A stretch of 64,000 nt of DNA from an uncultured delta proteobacterium (GTDB lineage Bacteria > Desulfobacterota > Desulfobacteria > Desulfobacterales > JAFDCJ01): positions 256,001 through 320,000 of the forward strand of contig CAVYNY010000011.1 in the NCBI GenBank assembly GCA_963769935.1, written 5' to 3'. The position numbers and the translations under genes were made by a program. A model generated the notes under the pieces. It was given only the letters and a program-made list of their open reading frames with translations. It was not told the DNA's origin and did no database searches. Positions 6,467 through 35,930 of this stretch are shown in pieces (position 1 is the stretch's first letter; each line of letters opens with the position of its first letter).

Positions 6467-7576
6467 GGGTGCTTCAGCCGTTCCGCCTCGGAGGATGTTT
6501 TTTAATTTCTTGGACAGCTTGTTGGATTCGAGTTTGGCGAATTCCTTCAGCAGGGCTTCCTGCTTTTTATTCAAACTGGTCGGCGTGCGGATATCAATCT
6601 GGATCAATTGATTCCCGCGCTTTCCCGTCCTCAGGGAGGGGATCCCCTCTCCGCGAAAAGACAGCACATCTCCGGGCTGGGTGCCCCTAGGTATCTGCAG
6701 GGTTTTATTGCCGTTTAGGGTCGGAATGGATATTTCATCGCCTAAAGCCGCTTGTATAAATGAAATCGGTATTCGGCAGATAATATCCGTATCACGGCGC
6801 TGGAAAAACTGGTGGGGTTCGACATTAATAAATACATATAAATCCCCCGGGGGACCGCCATGCATGCCGGGCTCGCCTTCGCCGGTCAGGCGCAGTCTTG
6901 ATCCGATGTCTACGCCGCCGGGAATTTTGACCGAAACCTTTTTGTTGACCATCACCTGGCCTGCGCCGCCGCAGCCGGCGCATGGGTGGGCTATGGCCTG
7001 ACCTTCACCGCGGCAGACAGGACAAGTTGTGCGCACGGTGAAAAACCCCTGGTTTCTTGAAATCTGACCCGCCCCGCCGCATTGGCGGCATGTTTCCGGA
7101 CCTGTTCCCGGTTCACAGCGACTGCCGTTGCAGACGGGACAAATCTCACTTTTGCCCACCTTGATCTCGGTTTCCGTACCAAAAGCAGCATCCATAAAAC
7201 TGAGGGTCATATCGAAGCGCAGGTCGGCGCCGCGCTGCACTCTGTTCCTGGAGCGCCTGCGGGTGCCAAAGCCGAAGAAATCCTCAAAAATATCGCCGAA
7301 ACTCGAAAAGATATCCTCAAACCCGCCAAAACCCGAAAATCCGGACCCTGCAAGGCCGGCATGACCGTATTGATCATACAGGGCTCTTTTTTGAGCATCC
7401 CGCAGAACTTCGTATGCTTCAGCTGCTTCTTTAAATTTTTCTTCAGCTTCTTTATCGTCGGGATTTCTATCCGGATGATACTGTAAGGCAAGTTTGCGGT
7501 AGGAAGCTTTTAGCTCAATTTCGGTGGCGTTGCGGCTCACACTCAGAATTTCATAATAATCCCGTTTGGTACCCAT
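6461..7576 (-). CDS. dnaJ: Molecular chaperone DnaJ
   Basis: J domain with HPD, G/F-rich region, four CxxCxGxG-type repeats. Confidence 0.97.
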
Positions 7577-7799: not shown

Positions 7800-9728
7800 C
7801 TACAGGATGATCCGGCCGGTTTTTTCCGTGCTGTATCCGCCCAACTCTTCTGCGCGGCGCTTAAATTCGCGGCTATTGATGGTTTCAAGCATCAGCCGAA
7901 TATTATCCGATTCAAAGTGGGCCAGCGGGATGATCAAATCATATTGCTCCGTGACCACCGGAATAAATTCAAGATTCAGCGCTTTGGCGGCGGCATAAAT
8001 TCCCAGACCGGTATCCACCGTACCGCTGAGGACTGCCACCGCCACGGCCATGTGCGTGAACTCTTCATGCCGGTAGCCGACGATAGCCTCCGGATCGATG
8101 CCGATTTGGTTCAGACGATAGTCAAGCAGAATCCGGGTGCCGGAACCCGGCTGGCGGTTGATAAATGCGATATCTTTGCGGGCCAGATCTTCGATGCCCT
8201 TAATGCCCTTGGGATTTCCCCGTCCAACAATCAACCCCTGATCGCGGTAAACCAGATTGACCAGTTTTACATCAAGTCCCGCTAAATATTTCGCAATATA
8301 GGTTACATTGTACGAGCCGTCTTCGGTATCCAGCAGATGCGACCCCGCCAGGTGGCAGGCACCTCTCTTGATGGCCATCAATCCCCCCATGCTTCCGACA
8401 TGGCTGGAAGAAATGGTCAGGTGGCTGTGTTTAGCCTTGATCATGTCGGCCAAGACATCCAGCGTGTTATCGTGGCTGCCGACAATGACAATGGTATTCT
8501 GCACGGAAGAAAGCGGGCGCAGCAACTCAGCCACGGCCGTCTCGTTATCTTTTAACCCTTCAATATGGTTTGGTATGCGAATGATGCCGTCGGCTTCGGT
8601 GATTGAGGTAATACAGCCGGCCCCTCTGGGCAGGGGAGTTGCCACGATCCGGTCGCCGACCTGTCCGAGCTTTACCCGCAAGAATTCCTCGACGCCGAGT
8701 TTGGAAGCAATTTTTCGAGTGGGTTCAACCTCAATCGTTTGAACAGCAGGGTCGGGTTGTCCCAGCATTCGATTGAGTATGGGGCGAACGAACTGTTCAA
8801 AGGCAATGATAGCCGACACCGGATATCCCGGAATGCCGAATACGGGTTTGCCGCGCACGGAGCCGATTACCACCGGTTTGCCGGGCATAATGGTAACGCC
8901 ATGCACCAGAACCGTGCCGAGGTCCAAGATTACGCTTTTGGCAAAGTCTTCCGAACCGGCCGAAGATCCACCCAGCACTAAAATCATTTGATAATCTTCA
9001 TTAACGGCCTGATCCACCACCTGTTTGATCTTGGCCGGATCATCTGCCAGCATTTCATGGCGGATGTAAGCTCCACCGAATTTTTCGACCAGGCTGCCCA
9101 GCATAAAGGAGTTGGTTTCGAGCACCTGACCGGGCTTGAAGCTATCGAGCGGCCGGGTGCGCCAGTCGAAAAGTTCCGATCCGGTAGGGATGATCAGAAT
9201 GCGCGGTTTTTTTTTGACCGGGACTTCAAATATCCCACCGGTCAGAAGGGCGCCTACACAATAGGGGGTAATGACATGATTTTGCGGAAAAAGAAGCTCG
9301 GTTGCCACCATATCTTCACCCACCTTGCGCACATTCTGCCAGGGAAACACCGGCTTATCGATTTCTACGCGCTCATCGTCTACCAGATTTACCTGCTCGA
9401 TCATGATCACGGCATCGGTTTCCCGCGGCATCACATTTCCGGTGTTCACATAAAAAGCATCACGATCGATCCGGAGCCCTTTGACGGCGGCCTCACTGGC
9501 CCCGAATGTAACTTCGGCCTTGACGGCCAGGCCATCCATAGCGGCCGCATTAAAATGAGGCGCAGAAATTCCGGCATACACGGGTTCGGCCAGCACCCGT
9601 CCAACCGCCTGCGGAACAGAGATTTTCTCAGCTGCTGGAAAATTCTCTCCGGGAAAATGCGCAGCGACGATTTGCCGGGCTTCCTGCAGGGTTTTCATTT
9701 CTAAATAAACGTTGCGTTTAGATCCCAT
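7800..9728 (-). CDS. moeA: Molybdopterin biosynthesis protein MoeA fused to a periplasmic-binding-protein-like domain
   Basis: AAMDG, IPTGSE, GGSSAG, PGKP, PGYPVS, then C-terminal GSHD / NRQPGSGTR PBP domain. Confidence 0.9.
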   Translation of the reverse strand: MGSKRNVYLEMKTLQEARQIVAAHFPGENFPAAEKISVPQAVGRVLAEPVYAGISAPHFNAAAMDGLAVKAEVTFGASEAAVKGLRIDRDAFYVNTGNVMPRETDAVIMIEQVNLVDDERVEIDKPVFPWQNVRKVGEDMVATELLFPQNHVITPYCVGALLTGGIFEVPVKKKPRILIIPTGSELFDWRTRPLDSFKPGQVLETNSFMLGSLVEKFGGAYIRHEMLADDPAKIKQVVDQAVNEDYQMILVLGGSSAGSEDFAKSVILDLGTVLVHGVTIMPGKPVVIGSVRGKPVFGIPGYPVSAIIAFEQFVRPILNRMLGQPDPAVQTIEVEPTRKIASKLGVEEFLRVKLGQVGDRIVATPLPRGAGCITSITEADGIIRIPNHIEGLKDNETAVAELLRPLSSVQNTIVIVGSHDNTLDVLADMIKAKHSHLTISSSHVGSMGGLMAIKRGACHLAGSHLLDTEDGSYNVTYIAKYLAGLDVKLVNLVYRDQGLIVGRGNPKGIKGIEDLARKDIAFINRQPGSGTRILLDYRLNQIGIDPEAIVGYRHEEFTHMAVAVAVLSGTVDTGLGIYAAAKALNLEFIPVVTEQYDLIIPLAHFESDNIRLMLETINSREFKRRAEELGGYSTEKTGRIIL

Positions 9729-9750
9729 TTTCGCTCCAACTGGCAGAAGT

Positions 9751-9908
9751 GGAATGGATTCGATTTTTTATGTTTATTTAGACAGGATCAACAGGATTAT
9801 CAGGGATTTTTTCGCCTGCGGCGAGGGGCCTTTCGGCCGAAGGCCGCCTTATCCTAACGATCCTGTTGATCCTGTCCAATTTTTTACTTTAAAATAAGAA
9901 TCCATTCC
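9751..9908. repeat. Palindromic intergenic element (GGAATGGATT...AATCCATTCC; inner GACAGGATCAACAGGAT/ATCCTGTTGATCCTGTC)
   Basis: Nested inverted repeats visible; related left end at ~61028-61080. Confidence 0.6.
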
Positions 9909-9947
9909 TCTCTTTTCCCAATTCTTTATTTCAAGAACCACAGCGCC

Positions 9948-11174
9948 TTACAGCGGAATCACCTCCACCTCGGCACCTTTATCCAGCCCCTCCGTATTCA
10001 TGCCGATTTCGATCAGCCCGTCTGCTTTTACCATGGTATTGATTAACCCCGATTTGCCTAAAATGGGTTCGGCCCACCGGATTCCCTCATTATGGTATGT
10101 GCGGACGCGAATATAATCCACCCGGCCCTGAGCCGATGCGATGTTTCGGCTGAGTCGGGCGGTCAGCCGCGAATCCCTTGCGGCTGCGCGACAGCCGCTG
10201 ATGTGATCAATAAAGGGCCTGACAATACGTGCAAACACAATCATGGCGGAAACCACATGTCCGGGCAATCCCCAGAACGCCTTGTTTTTTATTCCGGCCA
10301 AAATTGTCGGTTTGCCCGGGCTGATGGAAATTCCGTGAAACAGGATGGCGGCGTCTTGCATTGCGGATATGACGTCGATGGTAAAATCGCGGGCGCCCAC
10401 CGAACTGCCCCCGGATACCAGAACCATATTGCACTGGTTCAAGGCCTGGGTGCTTTTTGCCAGCAGCGCCTGGTAGTCATCGGGCACAATTCCAAATTGT
10501 ATCGGCCTGGCCCCCGACTCCTGAATCAATCCCGCAAGGGTATAGGTATTGATGTCACGTATCCGGCCCGGTCCGGGAACCTCGCCCACGGGGACAATTT
10601 CATCTCCGGTGGAAATGATGCCGATAATCGGTTTTTTATATACCGTAACCACCTGACTGCCCAGCGCCGCCAGCATGCCGGCTTCCTGAGGTCTGATGCG
10701 GCGTCCGCCGGTCAGGGCAATTTCACCTTTTTTAAGGTCTTCGCCAACCGTCACCATATTCTGGCCGGGTGCAACACTGCGGTACACCTCAATGGTGGTA
10801 TTATCGATGGCCTCAGTGTGCTCCAGCATGACAACGCTGTCGGCGCCTGCCGGCAGCATGCCGCCGGTTGAAATCCGCACGGCTTCACCCGGTCCTATCG
10901 AGATTTTTGGAGAAACTCCCATGGCTACGGTTCCGGTTACAGTCAGATATGCCGGATTGCCTTCACTGGCGCCAAAGGTGGATGATCCTTTGACTGCAAA
11001 ACCGTCCATGATCGAACGGGAAAAATCCGGCAGATCGATGTCGGAGCGGATATCGGTCGCCAGTATTCTGCCCCCCGATTCCGTCAGGGGAATACTTTCG
11101 GTCGGCATGAGCGGAAACAGCTGCCTGTATTCGAGGACCTGATCGATTGTTTTAACTTTGAAAAATTCTTTCAT
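9948..11174 (-). CDS. moeA: Molybdopterin molybdotransferase MoeA (gephyrin-like)
   Basis: SIMDGFAV, ISTGDE, SGGSSVG, PGKP, GLPG motifs. Confidence 0.93.
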   Translation of the reverse strand: MKEFFKVKTIDQVLEYRQLFPLMPTESIPLTESGGRILATDIRSDIDLPDFSRSIMDGFAVKGSSTFGASEGNPAYLTVTGTVAMGVSPKISIGPGEAVRISTGGMLPAGADSVVMLEHTEAIDNTTIEVYRSVAPGQNMVTVGEDLKKGEIALTGGRRIRPQEAGMLAALGSQVVTVYKKPIIGIISTGDEIVPVGEVPGPGRIRDINTYTLAGLIQESGARPIQFGIVPDDYQALLAKSTQALNQCNMVLVSGGSSVGARDFTIDVISAMQDAAILFHGISISPGKPTILAGIKNKAFWGLPGHVVSAMIVFARIVRPFIDHISGCRAAARDSRLTARLSRNIASAQGRVDYIRVRTYHNEGIRWAEPILGKSGLINTMVKADGLIEIGMNTEGLDKGAEVEVIPL

Positions 11175-15338: not shown

Positions 15339-16496
15339 TTACGAGCTGTGAGCTTTTGCAGGTATTCGGATCAGCTGGATCGCGCAAAGCGACACCAAGG
15401 CCATCATGGCTCCGCCGAAAAATGGTATGCGGTAGTCGACCATCCACAGCACGCCGCCTAAAGCCGGCAAAAAAACTGCGGCAATATGATTGATGGTGAA
15501 ACCGACTGCCATGCTCGGGGCAATGTCTCTGCGGTCGCCCACCTTTTGGAAATAGGTGCGAATGGCAATGGCAAAGTTAAAAAATATGTGATCCAGAATA
15601 TAGAGGGCGGCAATCAGCAGCTTGGATGTTGTGGTGGCATAAGCCAGAAAAATGAGAATCAGACTGAAATATTCCAGCGATAAAACTTTTCTCTCGCCAA
15701 AGCGTATAATGCTTCTTCCGATCAAAGGGCTCAGATAATAATTGATGGCATTGTTGATGACAAATAGAATTGTGATTTCTTGAACGGAGTATTTGAATTT
15801 CTGCACCATCAGCAAAACGGCAAATGCCATAAAAATCTGGCGCCGGGCCCCGGCCATGAAAGTCAGAAAATAAAAGAGCCAGTATTTTTTGCGCAGAATC
15901 ATTTTTTTGTGTTGCGGGATCAGCGTCTTGTCTGAAGGGTCCTGCAGCAATCCCCAGAACCCCGCGACGAAAGTCAGACCGCCAATCAGCAGGTAGATCC
16001 CGGCAAAATTCATTACAAACGCTGCAAAATAAATCAAAATTCCGACTGCGATGTTGGATGCCGCCGCAAAACTGCGTTGTTTGCCGAAAACCCAGGGTGA
16101 TGTTCCCTGATCGAAGTACTGAAGCGTCAGGGACATGTTGGTAGTTTCAAAATAATGAAAACCGAAGCTCATCACCAGGGTGGTTGTCATCAATCCGGCA
16201 TAGGATGGAAACCAACCGGTAATTGCCAGACCGAGACCCAGAATTAAAATCGAAAGGGCCGAAAGGCGATGCTCTTTGATGAACATGATTACGAAGACGG
16301 CCAACAGCGCCAGAAATCCCGGAATTTCTCTGACGGATTGTATCATTCCAATTTGATTTCCGCCCAGCCCGGCGACATCAACAGCAAAATTGTTAAACAA
16401 CGTGAGCCAGGTCTGCAACCCCATGGTTGAACAGATTGTAAACACAATCAGGTATCGGTACATGGGATCTTTTTTTGCTTTTTCGATATGAATCAT
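15339..16496 (-). CDS. MFS transporter
   Basis: About 12 hydrophobic segments; SVREIPGFLAL motif. Confidence 0.85.
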   Translation of the reverse strand: MIHIEKAKKDPMYRYLIVFTICSTMGLQTWLTLFNNFAVDVAGLGGNQIGMIQSVREIPGFLALLAVFVIMFIKEHRLSALSILILGLGLAITGWFPSYAGLMTTTLVMSFGFHYFETTNMSLTLQYFDQGTSPWVFGKQRSFAAASNIAVGILIYFAAFVMNFAGIYLLIGGLTFVAGFWGLLQDPSDKTLIPQHKKMILRKKYWLFYFLTFMAGARRQIFMAFAVLLMVQKFKYSVQEITILFVINNAINYYLSPLIGRSIIRFGERKVLSLEYFSLILIFLAYATTTSKLLIAALYILDHIFFNFAIAIRTYFQKVGDRRDIAPSMAVGFTINHIAAVFLPALGGVLWMVDYRIPFFGGAMMALVSLCAIQLIRIPAKAHSS

Positions 16497-16537: not shown

Positions 16538-16709
16538 GGTTCAAAATGATGAACCTCGGTATTAAGTCTATTTTCAATTACTTAAGATCCTATTCATGAG
16601 TCTGACCGACTGCGGTTCAAAATTTTGAATTTTACGCCATAGTAAAAAACTGCTTTAAAAACAAGTACTTTATCAAAATTTAACCCTCAAGGGTTAAAAA
16701 TTGTGAACC
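16538..16709 (+). promoter_or_regulatory. Three palindromic GGTTCA-N6-TGAACC sites (putative enhancer-binding-protein sites), unit 1
   Basis: GGTTCAAAATGATGAACC 16538, GGTTCAAAATTTTGAATT 16614, GGTTAAAAATTGTGAACC 16692; spaced 76-78 bp. Confidence 0.65.
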
Positions 16710-16837
16710 CAAACAGCGGTTCAACCGGTCTGCCGGCCACTATGAAAACGTCGCTTTTTTTTGGCATAAAATTATATCTTACTGAATTTAAATGGGATAT
16801 AAATATTTTTTCCTTGGCCGGCCTTTTTAATTCTAAT

Positions 16838-16854
16838 TTGGCAAGTTTATTGCA
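16838..16854 (+). promoter_or_regulatory. Sigma-54 (-24/-12) promoter, unit 1
   Basis: TTGGCAAGTTTATTGCA matches TGGCA-N6-TTGC with exact spacing. Confidence 0.75.
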
Positions 16855-16864
16855 GGATACTATG

Positions 16865-16939
16865 CCAGCCTAATAATTTGTTCATCTGTTCTCCTCCTTA
16901 ACGGCCGATTGGCTAGCCCCCAATCAGCCGTTTTTTTTT
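16865..16939 (+). ncRNA. Putative sigma-54-dependent small RNA, copy 1 (anti-SD CTCCTCCTT core plus intrinsic terminator)
   Basis: Starts about 12 nt after the -12 box; no ORF on this strand; ends in hairpin AACGGCCGATTGG/CCAATCAGCCGTT plus T-run; near-identical paralog downstream. Confidence 0.65.
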
Positions 16940-16965
16940 GATGATTGGCTGCGGAATTTAGCGGA

Positions 16966-17134
16966 AGTTCAAAACTTTGAACCTAATATAAATAGTAATT
17001 TAAGTTAGTTATAAGCTATTCCCTCAGACGGCAGGACCGGGTTCAAAATTTTGAACTTTAGGGACTAATAAGAAAATGCTTTAATAACAGAAGGTTTTCA
17101 AGTTTTGCCGGCAGCCGGTTAAAAATAATGAACC
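16966..17134 (+). promoter_or_regulatory. Three palindromic GGTTCA-N6-TGAACC sites, unit 2
   Basis: AGTTCAAAACTTTGAACC 16966, GGTTCAAAATTTTGAACT 17040, GGTTAAAAATAATGAACC 17117; spaced 74-77 bp. Confidence 0.65.
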
Positions 17135-17259
17135 CAAGCGCCGGTTCGAAAGCCTGCAGTTCTGCTTGGCGATGCGATCCGATCTTTTTTTAGATTTTTA
17201 ACTAATTGAATTATATAGGTATAATTAATATTTTAAATTTATTTATTTTTTTCTTCATT

Positions 17260-17276
17260 TTGGCAGATAATTTGCA
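17260..17276 (+). promoter_or_regulatory. Sigma-54 (-24/-12) promoter, unit 2
   Basis: TTGGCAGATAATTTGCA with exact spacing; 143 bp from the third palindrome versus 146 bp in unit 1. Confidence 0.75.
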
Positions 17277-17286
17277 TTAAAATATC

Positions 17287-17371
17287 ACTAAAGAAATAAA
17301 GCCTAATAATTTCTTCATCTGTTCTCCTCCTTAACGACTGATTGGCCAGCCCCCAATCAGTCGTTTTTTTT
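17287..17371 (+). ncRNA. Putative sigma-54-dependent small RNA, copy 2
   Basis: Same core as copy 1; terminator AACGACTGATTGG/CCAATCAGTCGTT with a compensatory change, plus T-run. Confidence 0.65.
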
Positions 17372-17506
17372 GTTTGAATTTTAAGAAGCTTTTGCTTAAA
17401 AAACATTTCTGGATGTGTTAAATTTTTTGTTATCGTCACATCTACTTAGCCAATCAACTGTTCAACCCGTCAGCGGATTTTGTATTTCAAGAACCAAGGA
17501 CCACGG

Positions 17507-18346
17507 ATGATTATCGATTGTCACACCCACATTTTCCCGGCAGATGTGCAACAGAACCGGGATCAATATTTTCAGGCAGAGCCGAACTTCAAACTATTAT
17601 ACCAGTCTCCCAAATCCAAGCTGATCGGGGCCACGGAACTGTTAAACGCCATGGATGAGCACGGGGTGGACAAATCGGTTATTTTCGGGTTCCCATGGTC
17701 CGATACCGATACTTATCGATTCCACAACGACTACATCATGGAAATAGTTCAAAAATATCCCCACCGGTTTATCGGCCTGGGATGTTTCGATCCGGCAGAT
17801 GTACAGGCTTTGGCTGAAACCGAACGGTGCCTGGCCGGAGGCCTTTCCGGCATCGGCGAACTGGCGTTTTATCGGTCCGGTATTGACGAATCCGCCCTGG
17901 AGCAGCTGGCTCCGATTATGAAGATCTGCTTAAATCGCGGCCTGCCGGTTTTAATTCATACCAATGAACCTGTGGGACATCACTATCACGGGAAAACTCC
18001 GATTACGCTGGCCCAGATTTACCAACTCATTAAACGATTCCCGGACAACAACATTATTTTGGCCCATTGGGGCGGCGGCCTGTTTTTTTATAGCCTGATG
18101 AAAAAGCAGGTTAAAGAAAGCCTTAAAAATGTCTATTTTGACACGGCCGCTTCTCCGTTTCTTTATGATGCCGCAGTATACCGCGTCGCCATTGAGCTGA
18201 CCGGCGCCGACAAAATCCTTTTCGGTACGGATTTTCCCCTGCTGCCGCCGGCAAGATATTTTAGCGAGATGGATCAGGCTGGATTAAGCCCAGCGGAGAT
18301 CGACCAAATTTGCGGTTTGAATGCGAAAGTGCTGCTTTCGCTTTAA
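17507..18346 (+). CDS. Amidohydrolase family protein (Amidohydro_2)
   Basis: IIDCHTH, GIGEL, IH, AHWGGG, FGTDFP. Confidence 0.88.
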   Translation: MIIDCHTHIFPADVQQNRDQYFQAEPNFKLLYQSPKSKLIGATELLNAMDEHGVDKSVIFGFPWSDTDTYRFHNDYIMEIVQKYPHRFIGLGCFDPADVQALAETERCLAGGLSGIGELAFYRSGIDESALEQLAPIMKICLNRGLPVLIHTNEPVGHHYHGKTPITLAQIYQLIKRFPDNNIILAHWGGGLFFYSLMKKQVKESLKNVYFDTAASPFLYDAAVYRVAIELTGADKILFGTDFPLLPPARYFSEMDQAGLSPAEIDQICGLNAKVLLSL

Positions 18347-27227: not shown

Positions 27228-27431
27228 ATGCCGGAAGGTACAGTAAAGTGGTTTAATAAGAAAAAAAATTACGGATTTATCGCATCCGAAGATCAGGAAG
27301 AAGTTTTCTTTCATGGCTCCCAAATTGTCGACCATGGTTTTTTTGGTTTGACCAACAATGATAAGGTTAGCTTTGAAATCAAAGAAACCCAAAACGGGCG
27401 CCAGGCGGTTAAGGTAAAGGTGACCAGTTAA
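27228..27431 (+). CDS. Cold-shock domain protein
   Basis: GTVKWFN..KNYGFI, VFFH; AAGGAG RBS. Confidence 0.92.
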   Translation: MPEGTVKWFNKKKNYGFIASEDQEEVFFHGSQIVDHGFFGLTNNDKVSFEIKETQNGRQAVKVKVTS

Positions 27432-28075
27432 TTTTTTTTCATCAACAGCTGTTTGATTTTTTTAACGCCGTCGCCGGCGTCTTGGGCGCAAGCGTCGGCG
27501 CCGATGCGGTCGGCCCAGCGTTTAGTGACCGGGGCGCCGCCCACAATCGTTTTATACTTTTCTTTCAGGCCTGATTTTTTCAGCTCTTCTTCAAGCTCCT
27601 TTTGAACCACCATGGTTGTGGTCAACAGCGTGCTGCTGCCGATGATGTCGGCCTTGAATTTTTCCGCTTCTTCGATAAAACGCGCAATGGGAACATCGCG
27701 GCCCAGGTCCAGCACATCGAAGCCGTTGGCCCGCAGCAGGGCTACAACAATCGTTTTGCCGATGTCATGCATGTCGCCCTCGACGGTTCCGATGACGATT
27801 CGGCCGGCGGCGGTTTCGTGCCCCAGCGGAATGGCCGCGTTAATGATGGCGGTTGCTTTTTCCATGGCCGCCGCCGATTTTACCAGGCCCGGGATAAACA
27901 GCTTGCCGGCCCCGAAAAGATCACCGACCCGGTTGATTCCGGGGATAAATCCGTTGGCCATTAAATCCAAAGGGTCGATGTTTGCATCCAACCCCCGCCT
28001 GGCAGCCTCGGCTGCCTTTTCAACATCGCCCTGTAAAATTGCTTCAATTGCCGCCGAATATATTTTTTCTGTCAT
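27428..28075 (-). CDS. mtbC: Methylamine corrinoid protein (cognate of MtbB)
   Basis: B12 cap domain plus GTVEGDMHDIGK (DxHxxG), DLGRDVP, VGGAP; directly downstream of mtbB. Confidence 0.88.
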   Translation of the reverse strand: MTEKIYSAAIEAILQGDVEKAAEAARRGLDANIDPLDLMANGFIPGINRVGDLFGAGKLFIPGLVKSAAAMEKATAIINAAIPLGHETAAGRIVIGTVEGDMHDIGKTIVVALLRANGFDVLDLGRDVPIARFIEEAEKFKADIIGSSTLLTTTMVVQKELEEELKKSGLKEKYKTIVGGAPVTKRWADRIGADACAQDAGDGVKKIKQLLMKKN

Positions 28076-28130: not shown

Positions 28131-29534
28131 TCAACCTATGTCCGATTTGAACAATTCAACCGAATTAATCCTCACATCCAGCAGCTCCGCAACCTTGAGC
28201 TTGGCCCGCATGCCTTTCGGACTGCCGGCCACAGAGGTGATGATGCCGATTCCCAGGTCCTCCCTGACCTGTCGCATGACTTCCTCGTTGGTCAGGTCCG
28301 AAATTTCAACTGCCAGTTTTTTTGCCGCATACTGCTTTGCTTCGGCCAATTTCATTTTTTTGATCAGCTGCAGCCAGGCCACCAGATCTCCGGAGGTCCG
28401 GATGCCGCCCATGCCGGAAGCAAAAATATGCGCCAGGTGCATCCCGAAAGGATCGCCGACGCCAATCTACAAACCGTCGGCTTTGCCGATCTGTACCAGC
28501 GATTTCGATGCCCGGGTGACGCTGTCGATCGGCGGTGCTTCCAGCATCGGCACCCCGCCGACGCCCATGCCGACGTTTACATGCACCGGTATATCGACCG
28601 CCGCCACGGCCGCTTTGACGAATGTCAGGCTGCGGGCGATGTTCCAGGCCGTGGACTGATTCGTGTTGGTGCCGACGGCCACCCCGAAGATGCTGGCACC
28701 GGCGGCTTCGGCCATGCGGGCCTGGTCGTGGGGGTACATTCCGGCCAGCTGCCGGCCGTTAAAGGTCATCTCGCCGTGCATCCCCAGAACAAATTCGCCC
28801 GCACCGCCCAGAATGATCGGCATGTCCGGCGCCGCTTTTCTCAAATCACCGACGGCTTGCAGCGCTGCTAAAAAATCGGCATCGCCCGCCGAACCGGCCG
28901 TATCGAAGTTGAGGCCCTCACAGCCGATGCGATCAAGTTTTTTGCCGACGAAAACCAGATCCTGGCGCAGCTGGGCGGCGGCGGCCTCCTGGACCTCCTG
29001 GGCTTCTTTGATTTTGCCCCCGGCCAGAAGATCGGCCGGATTTTGGTGGGGACCGTCCGGTTGAAAATATAATCCCATGTTGGGCTGGGCCCCGTACAAA
29101 AACGGAGCTGTGGTCATCATGGAAATCGTGTAGTACTCATTCATCTCGGAATTGACGATGGGTTTAACCGGTTTGAAGCTGTAATCGCTGTGGCCCATGG
29201 AGGTCGTATCCGCCGCACAGGCCCGCTCATAGGTCAGGATCGCCTGCATGCGGCTCATGGATACGCCGACACCGCCGCTGTCCTGCCCGGAATAAAAACT
29301 CATCGAGCAACCGTCATCCGTGACAATCACCTCCCGACCGGGTTCGACACTGACGGCCCGGGACGGCTCGGCCAGGATATCAAAGAGTGCTTCCATCTCG
29401 TCGGGGGTGAGTTCGGGAATTTCAGCACGCTGCGCCGCTTCCCGGCTGGCGGCCTGAATATCTTCCTTAACCTCTTCGGATGCCATCAAAACCCGCTCGC
29501 CGTCACCCATCCGGATTATAATTTTATCCTTCAT
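28131..29534 (-). CDS. mtbB: Dimethylamine:corrinoid methyltransferase with pyrrolysine at an in-frame TAG (codon 356, nt 28467-28469); 467 aa
   Basis: ORFs 28467-29582 and 28131-28442 are in one frame joined across TAG: ...GKADGL-O-IGVGDPFGM...ASGMGGIRTSGDLVA; RMGDG, DYSFKPVKP, NFDT motifs match recalled archaeal MtbB. Confidence 0.95.
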
Positions 29535-35869: not shown

Positions 35870-35930
35870 TTTGTTCTCCTTATACACATCGTCGTGATCA
35901 ATGGCGCGTTCGGCCTTTAAAATAAAGCAT

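Follow-up and report, generated by a model that had tools for sequence, protein, structure and literature searches.

The window analysed here, a 64,000-nt stretch of a genome that we designate G000, contains two tandem repeats that we interpret as sibling small RNA (sRNA) genes, transcribed from sigma-54-type promoters, whose products would repress the mRNA of a 16-strand porin in trans by pairing at two sites. We put the probability of this reading at roughly 0.82. The predicted target is strongly supported, and the RNAs would constitute a new family within a known kind of sRNA.

The repeats occupy positions 16538-17372 of the window as two units of ~430 nt each. Every unit comprises three palindromic boxes (GGTTCA-n6-TGAACC, spaced by 74 to 78 nt), one sigma-54-type promoter motif (TGGCA-n6-TTGCA), an unpaired core, and a plus-strand terminator. 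The two cores form the ends of the units, lie 433 nt apart, and have 72 nt in common at 93% identity. In unit 1 the boxes are found at 16538-16555, 16614-16631, and 16692-16709 (about -292, -216, and -138 from the promoter motif) and are likely enhancer sites for a sigma-54 activator. The -24/-12 motif follows at 16839-16854 (plus strand), and predicted sRNA copy 1 (~75 nt, plus strand, 16865-16939, both ends inferred) consists of a seed (16867-16879), an anti-start/anti-SD segment (16875-16903), and a terminator stem (16900-16932) that is followed by a U-run. Unit 2 has the same layout, with boxes at 16966-16983, 17040-17057, and 17117-17134 (about -286, -212, and -135), the promoter motif at 17261-17276 (plus strand), and predicted sRNA copy 2 (~86 nt, plus strand, 17287-17372, ends again inferred) with its seed at 17300-17312, anti-start/anti-SD segment at 17308-17336, and terminator stem at 17333-17365, again followed by a U-run. 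We take the motif to be a -24/-12 element, and the +1 positions to be 16865 and 17287, on the basis of the sigma-54 consensus. The first-pass annotation had placed the end of conservation near the +1 site; this describes copy 1, whose core begins at 16867, and fits copy 2 loosely, with a core beginning at 17300.

On the plus strand the core is unpaired and pyrimidine-rich and leads into a hairpin and U-run (fold z of -3.2 and -5.6 for the two copies; 0 of 200 shuffles each). In the minus-strand reading, AAGGAGG, and no U's, comes after the hairpin. Judged by sequence motifs only, each copy lies between genes and has a promoter and an intrinsic terminator of its own, as expected of a trans-acting sRNA. 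The flanks, which are conserved in this genus, are an MFS transporter gene on the left (15339-16496, minus strand) and an amidohydrolase gene on the right (17480-18346, plus strand). G000 contains exactly two copies of the RNA. Triple boxes with a promoter occur at just these two places in the genome, which has 41 single box hits in all; the activator therefore likely has the RNA as its only target. Sites resembling the IHF consensus with no more than one mismatch were seen between boxes and promoter in 23 of 36 rows (6 being repeats), a count made without a shuffle control; their positions are scattered, several falling at -62 to -65. RNA contigs from runs X6, X7, and X9 (one study, unstranded) cover the flanking genes and leave the RNA cores uncovered. 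An RNA contig of run X9 matches the window at 17305-17335 only (31 letters) and diverges on both sides; its opposite strand resembles the beginning of some other organism's secreted protein.

Of the 22 same-genus genomes, 20 gave a BLAST match to the RNA unit with E below 1e-11, and the unit is present in most of the Desulfobacterales genomes searched. No RNA was found in G002 and G017, where the neighbouring amidohydrolase gene was also not found with the query used, and an assembly gap may account for the absence. A covariance model built from 26 copies matched 15 of 18 genomes from other families of the order (9 already in the model, 5 new and credible, and 1, G033, dropped) and 17 of the 141 genomes of a phylum sample, G000 counted. 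Weak model matches in G033 and at G026:C102, in which a promoter or a terminator is missing, were discarded. A pattern scan of named genomes, covering 30 of 64 parts, gave at least 123 matches, at least 69 of which pass a strict filter for the anti-SD stretch and terminator; carriers among the matches listed include Desulfobacterales, Desulfosarcina, Desulfonema magnum, Desulfocicer, and Desulfatirhabdium. Of 35 distinct homologous copies, 33 have the strict promoter motif in front of them and the other two a one-letter variant. Two to three boxes at about -290, -215, and -138 accompany 30 of the 31 copies with enough upstream DNA. Double-sided changes affect 11 of the 13 terminator stem pairs, and the stretch from promoter to seed is variable among homologues. 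Neither the RNA nor the porin leader matched an Rfam family at the gathering and E-value thresholds; the best weak match for the RNA reached 21.9 bits against a threshold of 80, a search that takes in ChvR, csRNA, Mic, Qrr, and suhB if Rfam holds them.

We also noted variations on the unit. In five same-genus genomes (L051, L052, L053, L054, and L055) the whole unit is present once more at an unlinked position, and in three of them the 3' end of the anti-SD part is altered, perhaps tuned to another porin paralogue. Tandem RNA pairs are also present in L191 (D. magnum) and L230. The seed is duplicated at the RNA 5' end in L008, L012, L015, L016, and L020-L023, which echoes a tandem motif near the leader 5' end. 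Distant homologues of family f50 (L129, L132, L133, and L135) keep the promoter, anti-SD tract, and terminator and have no anti-AUG CAU.

The predicted target lies outside the window, at the porin gene that starts at G000:C19:109671. One part of the core gave weak opposite-sense BLAST matches to G000 C19:109661-109691 and to many relatives, and most of these matches are the starts of one kind of gene, encoding a secreted protein of 360 to 450 aa with a C-terminal Phe or Trp. The gene often stands beside gatB and a gene for an FG-GAP protein; a porin-like start beside the FG-GAP neighbour was seen in only 5 of 20 regions, G128, G160, and G076 among them. A structural model of the G020 orthologue (pLDDT 67.5, seven-row alignment) is a strand-rich barrel whose best Foldseek matches are OmpT, DcaP, Omp32, and PorB, with E values down to 3e-15 (OmpT). 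The modelled 16-strand barrel, together with the signal peptide and the C-terminal Phe, identifies the predicted target as a 16-strand porin, and the fold matches suggest a trimeric outer-membrane channel. Pfam has no family for two of the porin homologues and gave a below-cut-off barrel match for a third; a second target family scored 114 bits on NF033939, against a cut-off of 250.

In G000 itself the porin gene (G000:C19:108549-109671) is split over three frames. At the breaks, near-identical contigs from two DNA and two RNA runs are free of the extra single letters, and splits were seen at 3 of 20 loci tested in the G000 assembly. The frameshifts are likely an assembly error, the alternative being a broken gene in the strain. 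The target would escape an annotation pipeline. The X6 and X7 RNA contigs include the porin and end between L024:9763 and 9924, close to the presumed transcription start (~9884 in L024), and an X2 DNA contig continues past that point. We did not count these contig ends as evidence because they come from one study and contig depth cannot rank genes.

Pairing between the RNA and the porin leader is predicted to involve two modules. The 3' half of the RNA pairs with CGUUAAGGAGGA and AGAUGAAGAAAUU(G) at the porin start, and for copy 2 this duplex spans the SD, the AUG, and the first three codons (12 + 15 bp, -36 kcal/mol). The 5' seed of the RNA, AGCCUAAUAAU, is complementary to (A/G)UUAUUAGGC-type motifs of the leader, which are located near -171, -163, and -46. 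The G000 leader, ~210 nt long and downstream of a sigma-70-like promoter, contains AUUAGGC three times and is the sole cluster of three [AG]TTAGGC in the 8-Mb genome, which has two clusters of two or more in all. The repeated seed motif lies 40 to 175 nt upstream in the leader, and leaders have one to four such sites. It is present in 13 of 13 same-genus porin leaders (12 genomes) and in 0 of 6 non-porin starts retrieved likewise; second porin-like genes in G013 and G023 are without it. The conserved, unpaired region of the RNA is thus complementary to a distantly encoded mRNA. Since the seed sites are upstream of the SD, one straight duplex cannot hold both modules. Co-folding places a first RNA on the SD and AUG, at -25 to -28 kcal/mol net, and, for copy 1, a second RNA on an inner SD-like element and the -46 motif.

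That inner element was noted in its own right. In the G000:C19 porin leader, an SD-like sequence that has no start and is complementary to the 3' end of the genome's 16S rRNA lies at -112 (L024:9775-9784), and such an element is found 85 to 196 nt before the start in 21 of 23 porin leaders. Genome-wide in G000, 16 of 4,278 starts with their own SD have an SD-like element 60 to 200 nt upstream; 7 of these 16 genes look secreted, compared with 510 of 4,278 in the background. RNase J is present. The element may be STAB-SD-like.

In order to rank the porin against other genes, duplex energies were computed for 18,494 candidate starts in G000 over a window of -24 to +18, which was picked after the target had been seen. 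The porin start ranked first for copy 2 (-36.3 kcal/mol, against a mean of -12.8 with a standard deviation of 4.0) and second for copy 1, and it ranked first for both copies once the best leader seed helix was added. The seed alone is unspecific, with the porin at ranks 25 and 55. An earlier, wider ranking of duplexes, with 100-nt windows at 7,100 called genes, gave noisy results and missed the porin, as the gene list did not contain its broken open reading frame (ORF). An exact-match search with the antisense core gave a longest non-self match of 13 to 14 nt, which alone is not decisive. Nine-nucleotide matches at 35872-35880 and 31164-31156, which the first pass had listed as expected by chance, are present, and we agree that they are chance, because they occur 53 and 65 times genome-wide.

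RNA and leader change together across families. A 12 x 12 matrix was computed with one genome per family and one porin-like gene where there were several. Cognate start duplexes averaged -31.7 kcal/mol versus -23.7 for non-cognate combinations, and cognate seed helices averaged -10.1 versus -6.5. The cognate advantage was matched in 0 of 200,000 permutations for either module, a count that overstates independence because the families were treated as independent, without a tree. The cognate sum was the best of its row in 8 of 12 cases and the best of its column in 10 of 12; G025, for which a single porin-like gene was found, did not pass the test (row rank 7 and column rank 6 of 12). Control genes of the same genomes (1 to 7 each) gave a trace of -5.9 +/- 7.1 versus -127.8 for the porins, and the latter became -116.2 when the G037 leader, picked by complementarity, was swapped for a homology pick.

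Individual families illustrate the pattern. A GCCUAAU seed goes with an AUUAGGC leader in this genus and G023, ACCUAAU with AUUAGGU in G031, G036, and G176, (A/G)CCUGAU with AUCAGGU in G032 and G037, AAACAAU with AUUGUUU in G039, and CUUAAUGAU with AUUAUUAAC in G038. For G036, the leader was used to predict the seed before the RNA had been located, and the prediction held. In the start module, CCUAAAC faces GUUUAGG in G037 and CCUUAAAG faces CUUUAAGG in G035, and a rewritten 20-nt spacer in G029 is matched in that genome's own porin start. Among held-out named genomes, three of five show a clear match (D. magnum, Desulfosarcina sp., and Desulfobacterales bin36), each with the fitting seed type in two to four leader copies; the D. 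magnum RNAs pair as well or better with the leaders of two other genomes than with their own. In Desulfobacula a joint loss of the GGAGG core is apparent by eye, and the energy does not single it out. The RNA and leader of Desulfotignum were not matched in this held-out test. The pairing is kept by compensating changes in RNA and target, G025 and Desulfotignum being unmatched.

These results bear on the first-pass proposal that the RNAs block translation starts in trans. Its trans-antisense core is supported, with the predicted target being a porin leader and start elsewhere in the genome that covaries with the RNA across families. What does not stand is a target mRNA beginning MKKLLG, as only MKK(L) mirrors the porin start, or a target set of secreted proteins in general, as the evidence points to one main target. 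The two modules share AAUUU of the RNA, and for this reason the complement of the core reads MKK-LLG; MKKLLG is therefore a chimera in which MKK mirrors the porin start and LLG the leader motif.

The alternative that the minus strand makes a tiny hydrophobic toxin, with the plus-strand RNA as its cis antitoxin in a type I pair, was also raised in the first pass. The micro-ORFs on which it is based were confirmed: a 12-codon frame at 16885-16847 (minus strand, MNKLLGWHSILQ) and a 13-codon frame at 17318-17277 (minus strand, MKKLLGFISLVIF), each behind AAGGAGGAGAACAG. A strong SD and ATG, an MKKLLG that is invariant in most same-genus copies, and the tandem arrangement would suit such a pair. 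Across 33 distinct copies, however, the ORF varies from 6 to 28 aa with unrelated tails, six copies end directly after MKKLLG, the G037 homologue is frameshifted and reads MRNYQA, and the stop often falls within or past the promoter motif, so that no conserved hydrophobic peptide of toxin length is apparent. The DNA of the core is near-invariant even at third codon positions, and pairing with the porin leader accounts for every conserved letter. There is also no U-run terminator on the minus strand, and a scan for the sigma-70 consensus only gave 2 promoter-like sites there versus 3.9 expected. The toxin interpretation is thus already largely refuted and scarcely credible, and we regard both micro-ORFs as by-products of the antisense core, the 12-codon frame being no conserved peptide gene.

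Shared letters could also mean that one protein binds RNA or DNA at both places, or that the minus strand is a decoy, with no pairing involved. Protein sites are often short direct repeats, which the leader motif is as well, and the minus strand mimics the porin leader in compact form. Yet promoter and terminator both face the plus strand, several cognate pairs are kept solely as G-U wobbles in the plus-strand sense (G023, G035, G037, G038, and G029), which fits RNA pairing and not sequence identity, and changes track in the SD-AUG spacer too (G029, G035, and G037). We consider this very improbable, and we give still less credence to pairing that activates or stabilises the porin mRNA. Upstream pairing does activate some sRNA targets, and the leader is long and has upstream sites, but the SD and AUG themselves lie within the strongest duplex, and the leader has no stable SD-hiding fold (z of -0.34; SD unpaired probability, 0.66). 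A less remote, though still unlikely, alternative is a broad anti-start RNA that damps many secreted-protein messengers with a strong SD and AUG-AAR-AAR, the porin being the best of many. The starts that rank second to fourth for copy 2 (G000:C17:28083, C38:36134, and C10:285742; -29 to -31 kcal/mol) are signal-peptide-like, opposite-sense matches in relatives include starts like those of solute-binding proteins (L029, L036, L039, L042, and L043), and streptococcal csRNAs have generic anti-SD/anti-AUG stretches (PMC3091779). Against this, the porin leads the next start by 5 kcal/mol for copy 2 and by 11 with the seed, other starts are without the leader motif, and covariation tracks the porin and not the control genes. 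A broad effect could accompany the main target as a side effect and leave it unchanged. Separately, G000:C17:28083 and C38:36134 are possible secondary targets, the former with a weak single box just upstream.

The likely activator is a conserved pair of histidine kinase and sigma-54 response regulator. The regulator has Sigma54_activat, receiver, and HTH_8 domains; no named NCBIfam equivalog fits it. In many other families its gene stands directly before the RNA gene (14 genomes, all outside this genus), and 3 of 10 further regions behind the regulator gene contain diverged RNA copies. In all five cases with enough DNA, the regulator gene is 3' of the kinase gene. Genomic rpoN, a -24/-12 motif at fixed spacing, upstream palindromic sites, and this linked gene for an apparent enhancer-binding protein are what a sigma-54-dependent unit would have. 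In G000 the pair is encoded at G000:C10:100450-103300; the regulator orthologue (C10:100450-101820) is 72% identical, and there is no room for an RNA behind it. The regulator is single-copy in 39 of 52 genomes at E below 1e-140. It is present with the RNA undetected in G024, G040, G053, and G054, and it was not found in G028, which carries the RNA. In G023 the pair is flanked by mlaF/mlaD-like genes, by a TPR gene, and by two porin genes; this gene context is the sole ground for our guess at an envelope signal. No Hfq match (PF17209) was obtained in any of 31 genomes (rings exceeded the cut-off in 5 of 14 controls), and ProQ was not found in G000, the one genome searched.

We therefore envisage the following sequence of events, of which the signal, envelope stress, is the least certain step. 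The two-component pair would drive synthesis of the RNAs from about 16865 and 17287, and their pairing would block ribosome loading and speed decay of the porin mRNA. Two or more RNA molecules would act on each messenger, because the seed sites upstream of the SD are out of register for one straight duplex. Neither Hfq nor ProQ would be needed, with long multi-site pairing doing the work. A more elaborate version is tentative, and we think it rather less likely than not to hold in full: an order-wide, chaperone-free porin switch in which one sigma-54 two-component system makes an sRNA that loads the leader in several copies, blocking translation and stripping a STAB-SD-like shield against RNase J. 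One RNA copy would cover the true SD and AUG and another the start-less SD-like element, a perfect complement of the 16S tail, with its nearby seed motif; the numbers of leader seed sites (one to four) and RNA gene copies (one or two) would tune the dose.

Elsewhere in the window, 28370-28469 (minus strand) matches Rfam PYLIS_2, the pyrrolysine insertion element of mtbB, at 68.8 bits. The adjoining ORF at 27428-28075 presumably encodes a corrinoid protein, and the two together look like a pyrrolysine methylamine-methyltransferase region. At 7800-11174 (minus strand) are two tandem genes that we take to be MoeA-like, the longer one with an extra C-terminal domain.

By the tests run, the predicted RNA is a member of none of the known systems with which we compared it. 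MicF, MicC, MicA, RybB, and OmrA/B repress porin messengers at the translation start by means of 5' seeds, OmrA/B being tandem siblings. These enterobacterial sRNAs need Hfq and are under sigma-E or OmpR control; repression of a porin by start pairing is predicted here too. The 31 genomes searched gave no Hfq match, and the RNA does not fit the Hfq-dependent MicF/MicA/RybB type. Qrr and GlmY/GlmZ are driven from sigma-54 promoters by an enhancer-binding response regulator, often in several copies; they act on quorum-sensing or glucosamine targets, depend on Hfq, and belong to gamma-proteobacteria.

The RNA would act in the manner of ChvR of Caulobacter crescentus, which is two-component activated, Hfq independent, and directed at one outer-membrane-protein target, with two different RNA stretches that pair at separate sites, the first close to the start and the second farther upstream in the leader (PMC6237742). 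ChvR differs in its ChvG-ChvI control and its TonB-dependent receptor target (PMC6237742). The RNA predicted here has instead a sigma-54-type promoter with three palindromic boxes, a general porin target, a duplex of SD, AUG, and three codons, an upstream site repeated one to four times, and no Rfam match. Streptococcal csRNAs resemble it as sibling sRNAs under a two-component system, with unpaired anti-SD/anti-AUG stretches and hosts without hfq; they differ in being CiaR dependent and Gram positive and in having, for the most part, a 5' stem-loop (PMC3091779). The csRNAs have neither sigma-54 nor a porin target, and the predicted RNA has no Rfam match. Dv_sRNA2 of the sulfate reducer Desulfovibrio vulgaris lies directly 3' of DVU0679, a sigma-54 response regulator gene, and in its report it is the only listed target of DVU0679, its function is given as unknown, and its orthologues are listed in Desulfovibrio, Desulfotomaculum, and Symbiobacterium only (PMC3333781). 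The validated box of that system is unlike the box of these units (PMC3333781). NcS25 of Burkholderia likewise pairs over a porin SD and start and, according to its description, has no sigma-54 motif (PMC10117139). The main text of a sigma-54 regulome paper mentions neither sRNAs nor porins nor the box (PMC4641369). Our literature search, which covered sources other than subscription journals and theses, returned no description of the RNA and no sRNA with a known target in Desulfobacterales.

The analysis outlines a complete predicted circuit of sensor kinase, sigma-54 regulator, enhancer boxes, sRNA, and porin. In marine and wetland sediments, Desulfobacterales are major sulfate reducers, and the circuit would let them control the outer membrane in a way akin to the sigma-E and OmpR sRNAs, in a lineage whose searched genomes gave no Hfq match. 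Desulfonema magnum 4be13 is a cultured, fully sequenced carrier, with two tandem copies behind the regulator gene. The RNA and the porin leader also offer an unusually clean natural record of sRNA-target coevolution, in which the family-specific compensating changes would serve as ready-made swaps.
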